Shown: piece by piece, positions 25,759-32,409 of the stretch | Layout: every line of letters starts with the position of its first letter | How positions within the stretch are numbered: position 1 is the stretch's first letter | NCBI GenBank assembly: GCA_040289515.1 | Contig: PSLI01000003.1 | Span: 1 to 64,000 of the forward strand | Direction of reading: 5' to 3' | DNA length: 64,000 nucleotides | DNA from: Candidatus Sysuimicrobiota bacterium | GTDB taxonomy: Bacteria > Sysuimicrobiota > Sysuimicrobiia > Sysuimicrobiales > Sysuimicrobiaceae | Translations under genes and position numbers: made by a program | The notes under the pieces: generated by a model | The model's input: the letters and a program-made list of their open reading frames with translations, nothing else | Database searches by the model: none | What the model was told of the DNA's origin: nothing

Positions 25759-26331
25759 TCAGCTTACCTCCAGGGGCGACACCTGCACCAGGGCGTCGCC
25801 CACCTCCACCTCCAGGGTGTAGCGGCCCCGGGGCACGGCTTCAAACGCGAACTGCCCCACCGAGTCTACCTCCGCTTCCTGCTCGTAGTGGAAACCCACC
25901 AGGCGCGCCCGCGCCGGCTGCTCCGGTTGCGTTTCCCACGACACAATCCCCGCCACGGTACGCAGGGAAGCGTCCTGGGGCTCCTCCGTAACGGACACCG
26001 TGAGGGCGTACTCGCCCGCCTGGTACGTGGCCGCAGCAAGCTGCGCGGATCCCCGCACCGCGTACGCCGCCGCGGGCTCCGCCACCCGCAGCTGCGGGGC
26101 CCACTCCGCCACCAGGATCCGCCAGTCCGGGCGGTCCCGGGCGCGCAGGAACCGATTCAGGATGGCCAGCTCCTCCTGACAGCGCGGGCACTCCCGGACG
26201 TGGGCTTCCACTTCCTCCCGTCCGCTGTCCAGCAGGCCCAGGTGAAGCTCTCCCAGCACGTGGGGGTCAGGGCAGCGGAACCTGTAAAGCTGCCCCGCTA
26301 CCGCGCGTTCGAGGGCGTCGTGTGCTTCCAT
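25759..26331 (-). CDS. Zinc anti-sigma (zf-HC2)-like domain plus a C-terminal beta-sandwich (carboxypeptidase-regulatory-like) domain
   Basis: CP..H..HVRECPRC (HxxxCxxC); DSVGQFAFEAVPRGRYTLEV; RBS AGGAGG upstream. Confidence 0.75.
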   Translation of the reverse strand: MEAHDALERAVAGQLYRFRCPDPHVLGELHLGLLDSGREEVEAHVRECPRCQEELAILNRFLRARDRPDWRILVAEWAPQLRVAEPAAAYAVRGSAQLAAATYQAGEYALTVSVTEEPQDASLRTVAGIVSWETQPEQPARARLVGFHYEQEAEVDSVGQFAFEAVPRGRYTLEVEVGDALVQVSPLEVS

Positions 26332-26520: not shown

Positions 26521-27090
26521 ATGGGGAGGCTTTTGGGCGAGGTGCGCAAGACGTTCGGGTTGCGGGTGCACGAGGCCCGCACGTCTGCGGGGCTATCCCA
26601 GCGGGAGCTGGCCCGCGCCCTGGGGCTGCGCAGCGCGGTGGGGGTGGGCGACTGGGAGCGGGGCAAGGCCTTCCCCAAGTTCGAGACGTTCCTGCGGCTG
26701 TGCGAGGTCCTCAACAGGCCGCCTGCCTTCTTCCTGGAGGGCTACACCGAGTCCCCCCGGGACGAGGACCCCCTGCAGGCCTTGGAGCGGCTGGAGCAGC
26801 GCATGCAGCAGCGCCACCTGGAGCTTCTGCACCGCCTGGAGCAGCTGCCCGCCGAGGTGAGCGGCTGCCTGCCCCCGGACGAGGTGGCGCGCTTTTTGGA
26901 GTCCATGGACTTCGAGAGGGACGTGCTGCCCCGGCTGCCCCTGGACGTGCAGGGTGCCCTGCGGGCCCAGAAGCTCCCCGCGTCCCTGGAGAACGCAGCT
27001 TACGGGATCGCCCGCAACGCCGCTTGGCACGCGTGGGAGGTCACCCGCGAGGTCGTGCGGACGTGGCTGCGCCGCCAGCGGCGCCCGTAG
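26521..27090 (+). CDS. XRE-family HTH transcriptional regulator with an unknown C-terminal domain
   Basis: ARTSAGLSQRELARALGL..VGDWERGKAFP; alternative start at 26479. Confidence 0.85.
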   Translation: MGRLLGEVRKTFGLRVHEARTSAGLSQRELARALGLRSAVGVGDWERGKAFPKFETFLRLCEVLNRPPAFFLEGYTESPRDEDPLQALERLEQRMQQRHLELLHRLEQLPAEVSGCLPPDEVARFLESMDFERDVLPRLPLDVQGALRAQKLPASLENAAYGIARNAAWHAWEVTREVVRTWLRRQRRP

Positions 27091-27095
27091 GGGAA

Positions 27096-27177
27096 GAAAA
27101 ACGTCAACGGGAGCCGCCCCGAGTGACCTCTCGGCTTTCACCGGTTCGACCTCTCGGGACCTTACTCCCGTTGACAC
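27096..27177 (-). ncRNA. Candidate ~80-nt structured small RNA (family unknown)
   Basis: 11-bp terminal stem GTCAACGGGAG/CTCCCGTTGAC, inner stems, GAAA tetraloop, 3' U-tract, consensus promoter immediately upstream. Confidence 0.65.
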
Positions 27178-27181
27178 CTTG

Positions 27182-27210
27182 ATTATACGCGTCTGGCCGC
27201 GGCAGCGCAA
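27182..27210 (-). promoter_or_regulatory. sigma70 promoter driving the candidate sRNA
   Basis: Minus strand TTGCGC-17 bp-TATAAT. Confidence 0.7.
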
Positions 27211-27412
27211 TGGGGAACAACGGTTCTTGGTACCGGTGCCAGGTACCCGCAGGCGCGAACTCGCGGGGTCGGCCCCGGCGAGCCTCCCGGTGGCGGTGCG
27301 CCAGCTGCCCAGGGCAGAGGGGCCGGCACCTGAAAAATGCCCTTCCGGGTACGTCTAGCCAGGCGGTGGCTGGGGTATAAGTCCCGGTAGACGGGTTTAC
27401 GGAAGGAGGTGG

Positions 27413-27898: not shown

Positions 27899-29470
27899 TT
27901 GCTGCGGTACGCTCCGGGTGGCCGGCGCGGGCCGGCCACCCGGAGCTCGACCGGGTTGAGGGCAGCTGTGCCCGTCCGCGGATGGTTTGTTGTTGCGGCC
28001 TTCCTTCTGGCAGGGTTGGCCCTGCGGGCGGAATCGCTTGCGGGCCGCGTGCTGTGGTACGACGAGGTGTACAGCCTGTGGGTTTCCGAGCAGCCGGCAG
28101 CAGCCATCCTGCAGGCATCGGCTCTCTCAGACCCTCACCCGCCGGGCTACTACCTCTTGCTGAAGGCCTGGAGGAGGATTGTGGGGCCGACCCCTCCGGC
28201 CGCCCGGCTGCTTTCCTTGGTGGCGTGGCTTGGGTCTGTGGCCGTGGTCGCGTATCTTGCGGCCAAGATCTTCGGCTGGCCCGCGGGGGCGGGTGCGGCG
28301 TGCCTACTGAGCGTGCACGCTTTCCAGGTGATTGCCTCCACAGAAGCCCGTATGTACGCCCTGCTGCAGCTCGCCGCGGCGGTAGCTACCGCCCTGCTGT
28401 GGCGGGCCAGGGAGCAGGACCGACTGGGGCTCTGGGCCGCGTACGGCGCGAGCGCGGCTGCCATGGCCTACCTGAGCTATTACTCCGCGCTGCTGCTCCT
28501 GGCACACGGGCTGTGGGTGCTGGCCACACAGCCCGGCAGATCCTGGGCAGGCCCTGCGGTTGCGGTGGCCAGCGCGGTTGCCGCTTACGGCCCGTGGCTT
28601 CCTTTCCTGCCGGGCTCGGTTACCGCCAACACCGTGCCGTGGAGGCCGCCCCCGGACGCGGGGCTTGTCGCGGGGCTCCTGGCGAGCCAGGTGTACGGCG
28701 GCCACTGGCTTGGCGCTGCCGGCTACTATGGAAGCGGGGTCCTGCAGGCCTGGCAGTGGCTGGCCGGCCTAGCGCCCGTGACGCTGCTGGTACCCGGCTT
28801 TCTGGCTCTCCGACAGCGGAACGCACAGGCCGGCTTTCTGTTTACCCTGTGCTGGCTGGTGCCGGTGGGGGCGGCGGTGGCCGCCTCGTTTCTGGTGGGG
28901 AAAGTGGCCGCCTATGCCTACCACCTCACGTACGTGCAGCCCGTTGCGGCCGTCGCGGTGGCCGCCGGGGTGGCGGAAGTGTGGTCCCCGCGCGACCGAT
29001 CACCCCGGTGCGTGACCCAAGTTCTAGCCGCCGTAGGGGTGTTGGTTTACGCAGCTTCAGCAGCCGACGGGGCCTGGCGGGATCTCCGCTACCAGCCCTT
29101 CCGGTACGACCTGGCGGCCGACTACCTGCGCAGCCTCCATCGGAAGCAGGACATGGTGCTGTACGTGCCCCAGGGTATGCGGCGGGTCATGCGCTACTAC
29201 TTCGAGCCCACCGGGCGCGAAGTTCAGCTTGCGCTGCCCCTGGCTGCCTGGGGGCCCAAAGCGCACCAGGCGCGGCAGCGTTTCCGCGACGCCGTGGCCG
29301 CGGCGCTGCGGGCCAGCAGCCAACGTGTCTGGGTAGTGGCAAGCCCCCCATACCCGCCGTGGGTGCCCGAGATCATCGAGCAGGCGGCCGTGGAGAGCGG
29401 TTACCTGCCCGGCCCGGTAGCCCGCTTCGGGCATGTTACGGTAGGACTGCTCGTGCGCCGTGGTCGCTGA
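27899..29470 (+). CDS. GT-C membrane glycosyltransferase (GT39/PMT_2-like)
   Basis: LWYDE, DPHPPGYYLLL, EARMYAL; many TM helices; start approximate. Confidence 0.85.
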   Translation: MLRYAPGGRRGPATRSSTGLRAAVPVRGWFVVAAFLLAGLALRAESLAGRVLWYDEVYSLWVSEQPAAAILQASALSDPHPPGYYLLLKAWRRIVGPTPPAARLLSLVAWLGSVAVVAYLAAKIFGWPAGAGAACLLSVHAFQVIASTEARMYALLQLAAAVATALLWRAREQDRLGLWAAYGASAAAMAYLSYYSALLLLAHGLWVLATQPGRSWAGPAVAVASAVAAYGPWLPFLPGSVTANTVPWRPPPDAGLVAGLLASQVYGGHWLGAAGYYGSGVLQAWQWLAGLAPVTLLVPGFLALRQRNAQAGFLFTLCWLVPVGAAVAASFLVGKVAAYAYHLTYVQPVAAVAVAAGVAEVWSPRDRSPRCVTQVLAAVGVLVYAASAADGAWRDLRYQPFRYDLAADYLRSLHRKQDMVLYVPQGMRRVMRYYFEPTGREVQLALPLAAWGPKAHQARQRFRDAVAAALRASSQRVWVVASPPYPPWVPEIIEQAAVESGYLPGPVARFGHVTVGLLVRRGR

Positions 29471-29657
29471 CCCCGCGGACCGGGGGCGTTTTGCGCGGCT
29501 TCTGCCTCCACTCCATGTGTGGATCTTGGCGGGGCTCCTCCTGGCCGCCGCGGTGGTGCGTTTGGAACTGCTGGGCTGCGGGGGTACGCTGATTCGTTGT
29601 GGCGAGGTGGCACGAGAGGGTGCGAGAGGTGGATGGAGACCGGATGACGTAACTTAA
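29460..29657 (+). pseudogene. 5' remnant of another GT39-like paralog
   Basis: LLLAAAVVRLELLG mirrors the neighbours' first TM (AAAVRWELLA; LALRAESLAG), then diverges before the WYDE motif. Confidence 0.45.
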
Positions 29658-29722
29658 CCCCAGGCACCCGGATGGCGGGTCCCCACCAAGGGAGCTGCGA
29701 ACAGAGAGTCAGCTGGGGGAAG

Positions 29723-30844
29723 ATGCGGGTGAGGGTGTCAGCGGAAGTCAAATTGGTCGGTGCGTGGCTGGTCGCCACGCGAACGGTGCTCTGGGGAGTC
29801 GGACTGGTGTCGCGGGAGATCCTGCAGCCGTTCCTGCCGGTTCAGGAGCCAGGCGCGCCATTTACCACCAACCAGGCTCTCGCAGTATGGGGCCACTGGG
29901 ACACGCGTTGGTACCTGGACATCGCTCGCCGGGGGTATTCGGCTGAGCCGATCCCGGAAACAGGCGAGGCGAACTACGCCTTCTTTCCGCTGTATCCACT
30001 GTTGGTGAGGGCGCTCGCGGTGTTCCTGGGGGATGTTTACCTCGCGGGCTTGATCGTGTCCAATGCTTCCCTGCTGGTCGCCGGGATCCTGCTCTACCGT
30101 CTGACGGCATTCGAGGACGACGAAGTGACCGCGCGCCGTGCCGTCAAATACCTGTTTTTGCTTCCTACGGCTTTCGTGTTTTCTGGCGTTCTGTCGGAGT
30201 CGCTGTTCGTGGCTGTGAGCGTGGGTGCGTTCTACGCAACGCGGAGAAACCGGTGGTGGCTAGCGGGGCTGCTGGGAGGGTGCGCTGCCTTGAGCCGCCC
30301 CCAAGGGGTGCTGCTCATTCTCCCACTCGCGTGGCTGTGCTTCGCAGATCGGGACCGGCGACAGCGGTGGTTAGACTACTTGCCCCCGCTGGTTTTGGTG
30401 CCGGCAGGCTTGGCAGGTTGGGTGGCGTACACGTGGAGCCTTACAGGCGATCCCCTGGCCTTCGTAAACGTGCAGCGAGCGTGGCGGAAGGTGCCATCGA
30501 ACCCCGCAGAGGTCCTGGTGCAGGGCCTGCTTGCGCATGCTCCTCAGCTGCGTGTGGGAGCGTGGTTTGGGGCGGTCGCACGGGCGCTCGCGTTTTCTTT
30601 CTGGAGGCTGTTGGGTTTTCCGTACTTCCTGGTCTGCCTTGCCGCTGTGTTGCCAGCCCTGAGCAGCGGATGGACGTCGCTGTACAGCACCCCACGGTAC
30701 GTTGCAAGCGCTTGGCCGCTCGCGATTCTGTTCGCCAAGCTGGGGAGACGGGGAGAGGTGGACGGGGTGGCTGCGGCTTCCTTGGCGCTTCTTCAGGGCT
30801 TTTTGATGGTTTTTTGGAGCAACGGCTCACGCATGGTGATGTGA
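29723..30844 (+). CDS. Mannosyltransferase, PIG-V-like GT-C family
   Basis: WDTRWYLDIARRGY, NYAFFPLYP, SESLF, LSRPQG, PRY. Confidence 0.85.
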   Translation: MRVRVSAEVKLVGAWLVATRTVLWGVGLVSREILQPFLPVQEPGAPFTTNQALAVWGHWDTRWYLDIARRGYSAEPIPETGEANYAFFPLYPLLVRALAVFLGDVYLAGLIVSNASLLVAGILLYRLTAFEDDEVTARRAVKYLFLLPTAFVFSGVLSESLFVAVSVGAFYATRRNRWWLAGLLGGCAALSRPQGVLLILPLAWLCFADRDRRQRWLDYLPPLVLVPAGLAGWVAYTWSLTGDPLAFVNVQRAWRKVPSNPAEVLVQGLLAHAPQLRVGAWFGAVARALAFSFWRLLGFPYFLVCLAAVLPALSSGWTSLYSTPRYVASAWPLAILFAKLGRRGEVDGVAAASLALLQGFLMVFWSNGSRMVM

Positions 30845-32409
30845 GTCTTGCAAGAGGACGGGCTGTGGAGTGCCGGCTGGCGAAGCAGGCGCTGAAAGAG
30901 CGGGGCCGGTGGTACCTGGAACCGGTACCAGGTACCGTCCTGTGGGGGCTGGCGTTGCTGGCCGTCCTGGCGGTAGCCGCAGCAGTCCGCTGGGAGCTGC
31001 TGGCCACCCGCAGCTTGTGGTACGACGAAGGCTACAGCCTGTTTGTGGCCCGTATGGGCGGGCGGCAGATCCTGCAGTTCCTCAAGGCCAACGACGCGCA
31101 CCCCGCAGGCTACTACGTCCTCCTCTCCTTCTGGATTCAGCGCTTCGGCGAGGGGCTTCTGGTTGCTCGGCTGCCGTCCTTCGTATTCGGGGTGGCCGCG
31201 GTGGCTCTCACGTGGTTGGTGGCAAGCCGCCTGCACGGGCCCGCTTCAGCCGCGGTCGCCGCGCTGCTCGTGGCAATTCACCCGTTCCAGGTGATGGCGT
31301 CCAACGAGCTGCGGATGTACTCGCTGCTGACGGTGCTGGTGCTTGCCGCCGTTCTTGCCGCGGTGCGGGCCATCCGGGGAGGGGACAGTTGGGCGCTGCT
31401 GCTGGGCGTGCTGTGGGCTGCGGTGGGGTACACGAGCTACTACGGGCTGCTGGCCGTGGTCGGGATGGCTGCCGCGCTGTGGACGGGCGGCCACCGAAAA
31501 GTCGCGGGCCTCGCGGCGGCTACAGGGCTGGCCCTGTACCTTCCATGGCTCCCGTACCTGGCGGGGTTCTGGCGTGCCAACCCGCAGCTGTGGACGCGGG
31601 AGACGCTGTGGTGGGGGTATCCGGTGGAACTACTCGCCGCGCAGGCCTTCGGAGGGTACTGGCCGGACACGTTCACGTACCACACGTCCTTCCGGGGCTC
31701 CGTGTTCCTGTATGTCCCGCTGCTCGTTCCCTACGGGCTGTTTGCCGCGGCAACGGTGGCACTGGCGGGCCGCGAACGCTCCGAGGGGCTGCGGCTGGTG
31801 CGGTGGACCTGGATGACGGCTTTCGTGGCGATCCTGGGGTTGTCCCTGGCGATGGGCTGGGCCGCTGCTTACCCCCGGCACCTGACTTTCCTGCAGCCGC
31901 TGGCGGCGTGCTGGGTGGCCGTGGGGCTGGTGGAACTCAGCCGGGCGTTGCGGCTGCGGTCCCGGGCGGCGGGGTTGGGGGTGCTGTGGCTTTTGAGCCT
32001 GCAGGGTCCTGCGCTGGTGGCCATGCAATCCGACCCCCGGTACCAAAGCTACCGGTACGACCTGGCGGCCCGGTTCGTGCAGTCGGCCTTCCGCGCCGGG
32101 GACGCGGTGGTGTACGTCCCGGGCGGCACCTCTCTGGCGTTCGAGTACTACTTCCGTCCGCCGGGCCCGCGGGTGGAAGTGCGGATCCAGCCGCGCCCGT
32201 ACCGCCCGGAGGAGTGGCGCCCGCGGTTCGACAGGGGGCTGCGGGCTCTGGTAGGGCAGGTACAGCGGGTGTGGACGGTGACCACGGCGCCCGCGCCCCC
32301 CGCAGCGGAGGCGGCGCTGAAGGAGGCGCTGGGGGCACGGGGCTATCGGGTGGTAGGCGAGCGCGCGTTCCCCGGCCTGAAGGTGAGCCTCGCCGTGCGC
32401 GCGCGCTAG
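30841..32409 (+). CDS. GT-C membrane glycosyltransferase (GT39/PMT_2-like), paralog of 27899..29470
   Basis: SLWYDE, DAHPAGYYVLL, ELRMYSL, RYQSYRYDLAA; GTG overlaps the upstream stop. Confidence 0.85.
   Translation: MSLARGRAVECRLAKQALKERGRWYLEPVPGTVLWGLALLAVLAVAAAVRWELLATRSLWYDEGYSLFVARMGGRQILQFLKANDAHPAGYYVLLSFWIQRFGEGLLVARLPSFVFGVAAVALTWLVASRLHGPASAAVAALLVAIHPFQVMASNELRMYSLLTVLVLAAVLAAVRAIRGGDSWALLLGVLWAAVGYTSYYGLLAVVGMAAALWTGGHRKVAGLAAATGLALYLPWLPYLAGFWRANPQLWTRETLWWGYPVELLAAQAFGGYWPDTFTYHTSFRGSVFLYVPLLVPYGLFAAATVALAGRERSEGLRLVRWTWMTAFVAILGLSLAMGWAAAYPRHLTFLQPLAACWVAVGLVELSRALRLRSRAAGLGVLWLLSLQGPALVAMQSDPRYQSYRYDLAARFVQSAFRAGDAVVYVPGGTSLAFEYYFRPPGPRVEVRIQPRPYRPEEWRPRFDRGLRALVGQVQRVWTVTTAPAPPAAEAALKEALGARGYRVVGERAFPGLKVSLAVRAR

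Follow-up and report, generated by a model that had tools for sequence, protein, structure and literature searches.

A predicted rod-shaped small RNA gene with a LexA-type operator and its family in the phylum Sysuimicrobiota

The window, by which the whole analysed stretch of 64,000 nucleotides from a Candidatus Sysuimicrobiota bacterium is meant (assembly GCA_040289515.1, contig PSLI01000003.1), contains a short intergenic element on the minus strand between a gene for an XRE-family regulator and a pilin gene. An earlier note, made from the letters alone, had described it as a stand-alone structured RNA with its own promoter. The RNA predicted here, referred to as class A, and its surroundings comprise the following features.

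27097..27175, minus strand: predicted 79-nt class A rod RNA, with a likely start at G27175 and its end at the U-tract, based on fold, covariation and the family model
27165..27175, minus strand: 5' arm of the basal stem P1, family consensus GYCRGCGG
27103..27113, minus strand: 3' arm of P1, which pairs with 27165..27175 (11 bp)
27148..27154, minus strand: 5' half of the conserved core, with A-U, G-C and an unpaired R, followed by a 4-bp helix with a G.U wobble
27122..27128, minus strand: 3' half of the conserved core, GGUC-A-CU, the family form being U-N-A-C-U
27132..27143, minus strand: apical hairpin, in which pairing is kept and the sequence is variable (5/5 apical pairs change on both sides)
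27097..27101, minus strand: U-tract of five U, the predicted intrinsic terminator of the RNA, with no matching U-run on the plus-strand side
27182..27187, minus strand: -10 hexamer TATAAT, invariant in 6/6 same-genus sequences, with TAAAA/TATGAT variants elsewhere
27205..27210, minus strand: -35 hexamer TTGCGC, of which TTGC is conserved
27215..27226, strand not assigned: LexA-type operator GAAC-N4-GTTC, 4 bp upstream of the -35
26521..27090, plus strand: convergent XRE-family HTH gene (Pfam HTH_3/HTH_31), a conserved neighbour and a candidate partner at most

The architecture proposed in the earlier note is borne out by the letters. TTGCGC (27210-27205) and TATAAT (27187-27182) are separated by a 17-bp spacer, a perfect 11-bp terminal stem joins 27175-27165 with 27113-27103, a CCCGAG/CUCGGG helix and a CGGU-GAAA-GCCG apical loop lie inside, five U at 27101-27097 form the terminal tract, a 10-mer is present at both 27148-57 and 27125-34, and there is no ORF, with zero start codons inside the RNA. 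The fold has a free energy of -44.4 kcal/mol (z = -3.54), and 0/200 shuffles are equally stable. The -35 hexamer matches only 3/6 consensus bases, because of which the class A promoter is passed over by a promoter scanner. Transcription had been thought to start near 27177; G27175 is the likely start instead, because the stem begins 6-7 nt past the -10 in the 10 promoters displayed, and sigma70 would transcribe the RNA from this G to the U-tract. The operator at 27215-27226, which is perfect here, had been overlooked.

A DNA search of 61 related genomes detected class A in 5 others of the genus. Five more, G008-G011 and G013, came to light in the DNA that follows their XRE orthologues, which brings class A to 10/12 genomes of family f1 and the single f3 genome. 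The G007 contig breaks off at the XRE stop, and neither XRE nor class A RNA was found in G004 (96% complete). A promoter-pattern search found class A in 9/39 metagenome loci, 7 of the 9 being full length. As to the homologue and covariation check that the earlier note had suggested, 96.7% of the cells are paired in the 11-genome alignment and 10/25 pairs show compensatory changes on both sides. This covariation is matched by 0/500 shuffles, which ignore relatedness, and slid controls are 31-46% paired. Among 15 class A sequences, internal non-canonical pairs are retained in all 15, and the sense strand folds better than the antisense strand in all 15. Both promoter hexamers are conserved, and the spacer that separates them varies freely. 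The element is very probably a real RNA gene, as far as conservation and covariation can indicate. The two-fold pseudo-symmetry once suggested as a functional feature did not hold up in relatives: of 15 class A sequences, only the one from this genome has the perfect 10-mer repeat, and the longest repeat is 5-8 nt in the other 14; only GGUC on both arms is kept, in 13/15. The 10-mer repeat itself exceeds what shuffling yields, a repeat of at least 10 bases arising in 3/1000 shuffles.

The question of whether the RNA stays next to the XRE and pilin genes has a divided answer. The XRE gene is its tail-to-tail neighbour in 11/11 genomes and in 6/6 metagenome loci extending that far, with the XRE stop codon ~0-20 nt from the RNA 3' end. 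The pilin gene adjoins here and in 4/9 metagenome copies, but in 0/8 other genomes with enough upstream DNA, where a helicase, a coiled-coil protein, DUF402 with HPF, a phosphodiesterase, a glyoxylate reductase or an unknown gene is found, and the proposed pilin link is therefore abandoned. The hairpin on the reverse strand probably also terminates the convergent XRE transcript, by which the fixed XRE linkage can be explained. An XRE orthologue is present in 15/15 f4 genomes, with the RNA in 0/12 f4 loci read downstream; XRE orthologues were not found in f2 (0/16 genomes) or f5 (0/15), though the RNA family occurs in both. The XRE protein model consists of a DNA-binding HTH and a helical tail, and a fold search matched HTH domains only and no RNA-binding fold.

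Some observations concern other neighbouring genes. Downstream of the XRE orthologues in f4 (L024-L038), a convergent gene with a YGTL motif, which we take to be cyclotransferase-like, lies in place of the RNA. At 25759-26331 (minus strand) of the window, a Cys/His-motif gene without a Pfam match, presumably resembling zinc anti-sigma factors in this motif, points away from XRE in 10 f1 loci, the DNA between the two genes being AT-rich. After the pilin gene, 27899-32409 of the window contains several membrane glycosyltransferase-like genes (PMT_2), likely a pilin glycosylation cluster.

By the sequence models, class A is a divergent paralogue of a rod-RNA family of the phylum Sysuimicrobiota/CSP1-3, which is carried by 86/94 phylum genomes with 1-4 copies each. 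The class B model at E<=0.05 detects 86/94 genomes (52/54 high-quality genomes), and the final 86/94 was reached after G088 was dropped (match inside a predicted gene, no promoter) and G003 was added (class A only). The tallies take in two unpublished genomes, G023 and G076, on whose sequences no conclusion depends. No member was found in G052 or G089, both 96% complete. Class B is 92-99 nt long and is found in this genome at contig C70. In f2, a 123-129-nt form and a second short form are present, class E is also distinguished, and two fusion forms carry the module at their 3' end, one of ~165 nt (class C, f2) and one of ~290 nt (genus g18, f4). Carriers of class B include Ca. Sysuimicrobium, Ca. 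Fervidifonticultor and Armatimonadetes bacterium CSP1-3, organisms that the available text of one report places in the phylum Sysuimicrobiota (PMC11604079). Other rods are also picked up by the class A model. On two independent grounds, class A is considered to be homologous to the rest of the family: when no class A sequence is used for training, the resulting model still gives this RNA its best score in the window (E 4e-5), and the promoters, unseen by the models, share their layout. The family constants, taken from 95 sense-strand members after 43/138 rows were removed as antisense duplicates, comprise the basal stem and a core in which A-U and G-C (94/95) are followed by an unpaired purine opposite A, a free pair and G.U (85/95); this core can be written AG-R-N-G / U-N-A-C-U. 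B-type covariation affects 18/26 pairs across 65 distinct members in an alignment fitted to the model. Neighbours differ between classes and families, many members have no convergent gene, and no partner gene was found to travel with the family; variable neighbours are as expected for a trans-acting RNA.

No member was found outside the phylum in a search of 185,579 genomes, in which 88 pattern loci appeared, 39 passing the model and 49 failing it. Genomes reached through other phyla gave 0/5, 0/141 and 0/141 under strict filters, in runs without an internal positive control, and viral contigs gave 0 and 1 pattern match, the one failing the model. Remote relatives may be missed, because the search patterns were class-specific. 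A genome scan for the core motif returned the two paralogues, one further intergenic site and one site in a gene. The class B paralogue of this genome (G000:C70:3430-3526, minus strand; locus L085) lies upstream of ispG, and its operator is decayed (2 mismatches). The core motif at G000:C75:19585 (plus strand), in the long leader of a gene reading as an S-layer protein, is probably due to chance. In G009 and G010 (L127, L128), a third, diverged f1 copy adjoins an apparent tRNA gene on the opposite strand, which suggests a recent duplication.

The earlier note could not match the RNA to a known class and would have regarded a known Rfam hit as counting against a new RNA. In Rfam 15, neither the locus nor its paralogues reach the gathering cut-off of any family, the best E at the locus being 0.81. 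The 6S model RF00013 matches other loci in 45/60 genomes, and the rod here, of 74 nt, falls short of the ~180 nt and the central bubble of 6S RNA. The true SRP RNA lies at C3, with neither a helix-8 motif nor an RF00169/RF01854 match at the locus, and weak model matches of 93-94 nt first taken for SRP RNA are paralogues. RNase P (at C5), tmRNA (at C20) and tRNA are also rejected, with no call at the locus by model or ARAGORN and the family profile scoring <2 bits on RNase P and tmRNA; a likeness to RNase P through an 11-mer common to f4 copies is unsupported (profile 0.7 bits). The partner of bacterial Y RNA, Ro60/TROVE, was found in 0/94 genomes, with controls ringing in 2/14, and cmscan gave no match to the raiA motif RNA (RF03072), which has two pseudoknots. 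The family is free-standing, away from rpsD (alpha operon) and not in the 5' UTR of an r-protein operon. No description of this RNA was found in the literature, in a search with supplements (which could list unnamed motifs) and subscription journals outside its scope, and 'non-coding', 'small RNA' and 'LexA' have 0 occurrences in the main text of PMC11604079. As judged from these searches, the phylum-wide RNA family is new; it resembles stand-alone decoy RNAs most and belongs to none of the groups tested. In the slot between aspS and rarA, this genome holds an amidase-like gene (G000:C66:7475-11988), and 6S was not found in 12/12 f1 genomes or G013, an apparent loss across the whole family f1.

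An unsupervised palindrome search of 29 lexA upstream regions yielded the operator GCRAACA-NN-TGTTYGC. In most family promoters its core, RAAC-N4-GTTY, lies upstream of the -35 at a distance of exactly 4 bp. The SOS box of B. subtilis is GAAC-N4-GTTC, and the phylum operator is thus of the Gram-positive type, on the available text of PMC4234289. At that position, class A has the operator with <=2 mismatches in 11/11 promoters, with <=1 in 7 and perfectly in 3, including this genome. The operator has <=1 mismatch in 25/26 f5 copies and 8/8 long f2 copies, is perfect in 6/6 short f4 copies and 10/11 second f2 copies, and has one mismatch in five g18 promoters read by eye; the background is 0.6% for 2 mismatches and 0.06% for 1, the best of a few TTG sites in range being taken. 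The SOS box is absent from class C (0/6), class E (0/4) and two extra f1 copies (0/2). It is decayed on the left half, with 2 mismatches, in 3/6 class A promoters of genus g1 and 11/11 class B promoters of f1. The right half and the next 4 bases are better kept than the left half, and part of the operator may hence serve something besides LexA. That the box is a general promoter feature was rejected, since only 1/107 sigma70-like intergenic promoters of this genome has it there, by a scan pattern that did not fit the class B promoter. A lexA gene was found in 46/46 genomes, and similar boxes precede lexA and recA here, together with two genes that presumably are recX and dnaB. The lineage's own lexA operator, the sequence mark of an SOS regulon, is present in this promoter, and LexA control of this RNA copy appears probable. 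DnaA-like boxes, scored by a loose pattern from what we take to be the DnaA box consensus, precede 21/26 f5, 8/8 long f2 and 5/5 g18 copies, and 0/11 class A copies. Most phylum genomes have two lexA genes, and one was found in the five genus g1 genomes searched, where the RNA operators are most decayed.

The 3' strand of class B, which to our eye looks like 16S helix 18, prompted a test on fetched rRNA, the targets being 16S as the only rRNA set and the whole genome. The all-class profile aligns ~56 nt with 16S ~473-528, which takes in the 3' strand of helix 17 together with the 5' strand of helix 18, and the core A-C-U matches 16S A510-U512. Over both strands of the ~4 Mb genome, 16S is the top non-family match of the family profile (13.8 bits, E 0.12, a post hoc result), while it makes up ~0.04% of the searched space. 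None of 250 block-shuffled profiles matches 16S as well, the reversed profile scores 0.0, and a control 6S profile built likewise gives no 16S match. The match survives the omission of any class (11.5-14.5 bits) and recurs in 5/5 16S genes. It is weaker with a B-only profile (2/250 shuffles as good, 1/25 in another run), not significant with single-class profiles, and absent with the class A profile alone, for which 74/250 shuffles are as good. According to the available text of PMC2665224, A509/A510 matter for S4 binding, and tight S4 binding also requires helices 3, 4 and 16; the family is a single rod without a counterpart of these three helices. The 16S likeness points to ancestry from, or mimicry of, the helix 17/18 region, as far as profiles can tell, and the ligand is not named by it. 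Pairing in trans with 16S helix 18 was rejected, the best duplexes of the rod arms falling outside helix 18 and being weaker than the RNA's own fold.

These features can be put together as follows. LexA represses SOS genes until its RecA-promoted cleavage upon DNA damage. We lean towards the reading that the element is a small RNA gene standing on its own and a diverged second copy of the phylum rod family; it would be repressed by LexA, released on damage, the sign of control being predicted, and would bind and titrate a protein through its basal stem and mismatch core. That the family acts through a protein seems likely, because it has no conserved single-stranded seed, keeps invariant non-canonical pairs whose distance from the ends is roughly fixed, and is reused as a 3'-end module. 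Of the proposal that the RNA is a protein ligand, a protein partner thus stands as likely, the XRE protein as a possible but disfavoured one, and neither the pilin link nor the two-fold symmetry survives; the RNA likely acts by protein binding and not through the neighbouring pilin gene. The complementary hairpin would end the XRE mRNA. Because the family resembles 16S helix 17/18, a factor that normally binds that stretch in 30S assembly is the lead candidate for the family's ligand, although a link to the ribosome through a helix-18 or 30S-assembly factor is doubtful, and class A may have moved on to a different partner.

The strongest rival, though an unlikely one, is that class A is dedicated to the convergent XRE gene or its protein, as a ligand or an antisense regulator. 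The tail-to-tail arrangement in all the genomes and reaching loci speaks for it, as do the facts that this link outlasts that of XRE to its upstream gene (no match in the G013 locus), that G004 lacks both, that the 3' ends would overlap, that GGUC is kept on both arms and that the class A centre is predicted to open at 65 C. However, the 12 f4 loci read have no adjacent RNA and R1 finds none in 23 f4 genomes, the family thrives in f2 and f5 without XRE, XRE has only HTH matches, and shared use of a terminator is a cheaper explanation of the linkage. Base pairing with mRNAs or rRNA in trans, as an sRNA or sponge, would suit the promoter, U-tail and SOS box, which fit regulatory sRNAs, and the SD-like GGAGG stretch of the B class; it is quite improbable, as class A has no conserved unpaired seed, its loops being variable and of 3-4 nt, the rod is held by -42 to -57 kcal/mol, and the best 16S duplexes do not outcompete the intramolecular fold.

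Two further rivals start from the genomic setting. In f1 and f3, exactly the class A families, 6S is found in 0/12 and 0/1 genomes, and the aspS-rarA slot that holds it elsewhere is too small for 6S here, so that class A could have replaced 6S as an RNA-polymerase-binding RNA in a lineage that lost it. This is very unlikely, considering that the pattern of loss is probably one evolutionary event, that the family coexists with 6S in f2, f4, f5 and f7, and that, by the geometry of 6S RNA, a rod of 74 nt that lacks a large bubble and has only 5 bp in its apical arm is too small for a promoter mimic. The earlier note had allowed that the hairpin might act only as a terminator. Least probable of all is that it is just the XRE terminator and that its decaying promoter is a relic of a class B gene duplication. 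Its place directly at the XRE stop and the decay of the operator's left half in g1 speak for this, but the -10 and -35 are conserved around a free spacer, the U-tract lies on the RNA strand only, the internal non-canonical pairs are kept throughout class A, and many family members have no convergent gene at all.

Several known systems resemble parts of this picture. The stand-alone protein-titrating bacterial RNAs 6S/SsrS (RF00013), CsrB/RsmZ and GlmY likewise have their own promoter and terminator, a rod or hairpin with conserved non-canonical elements, near-universal presence in a lineage and paralogues, whereas this family has no large bubble, no conserved GGA loops and a LexA/DnaA-type promoter. 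On the available text of PMC7790460 and PMC9879122, bacterial Y RNAs are linked to stress and DNA damage and have paired 5' and 3' ends, and like them classes C and g18 are modular, with a shared stem and different domains, whereas no Ro60 partner is present and no tRNA-like domain was called in the family. The rRNA-mimic S4 leaders, as described in the available text of PMC7247131, resemble an rRNA protein-binding region, as the family profile, though not that of class A alone, resembles 16S h17/h18, but they act in cis on r-protein operons, whereas the family is free-standing and has no r-leader model match. The raiA motif (ModT) RNA (RF03072), in the available text of PMC12968392, is a structured RNA that acts in trans, has no assigned function and is closed by a conserved stem. 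A few raiA-like words occur in the 5' domain of the long g18 form, and class A, a simple rod, has no pseudoknots. The E. coli uvrB promoter, in the available text of PMC6015884, is under joint LexA and DnaA control, and classes B, D and g18 likewise combine the two kinds of site in a single promoter, although uvrB is a protein-coding repair gene and class A has the LexA-type box only.

In its widest form, which we consider speculative and rather unlikely to hold as a whole, the phylum would have turned a copy of 16S helix 17/18 into free decoy RNAs wired to LexA and DnaA, which sequester a 30S-assembly factor normally bound to that region (uS4, or a helix-18 modifier or chaperone) and thereby pause ribosome building on DNA damage or stalled replication; the module would be a 3' handle on two unrelated larger RNAs, and class A would have been re-tuned to a new partner in a lineage without 6S. 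If true, the helix 17/18 likeness would mean an rRNA-derived trans-acting RNA. It is rare for a structured RNA with near-universal presence across a lineage to be missing from Rfam. Here the phylum's own SOS operator, which stands at a fixed place and in many copies is joined by DnaA-like boxes, opens a possible RNA arm of a DNA-damage/replication checkpoint to direct tests.

The 1-4 paralogues and the two fusion forms provide a natural series for partner finding. Class C (L055-L058, L069, L152; f2) is ~165 nt long, has two domains and a strong TTGACA promoter, and lies near groEL and copper genes, with a repeated CCATAGACC element in place of the SOS box. The g18 long form (L120, L122-L125) has a ~200-nt conserved 5' domain with its own closing stem upstream of the module, behind a LexA/DnaA-type promoter. 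This 5' domain has a possible 6-bp loop-linker pseudoknot and no Rfam match, and its GACGUA word also occurs in the raiA linker, according to the available text of PMC12968392. It is possibly a second new RNA.
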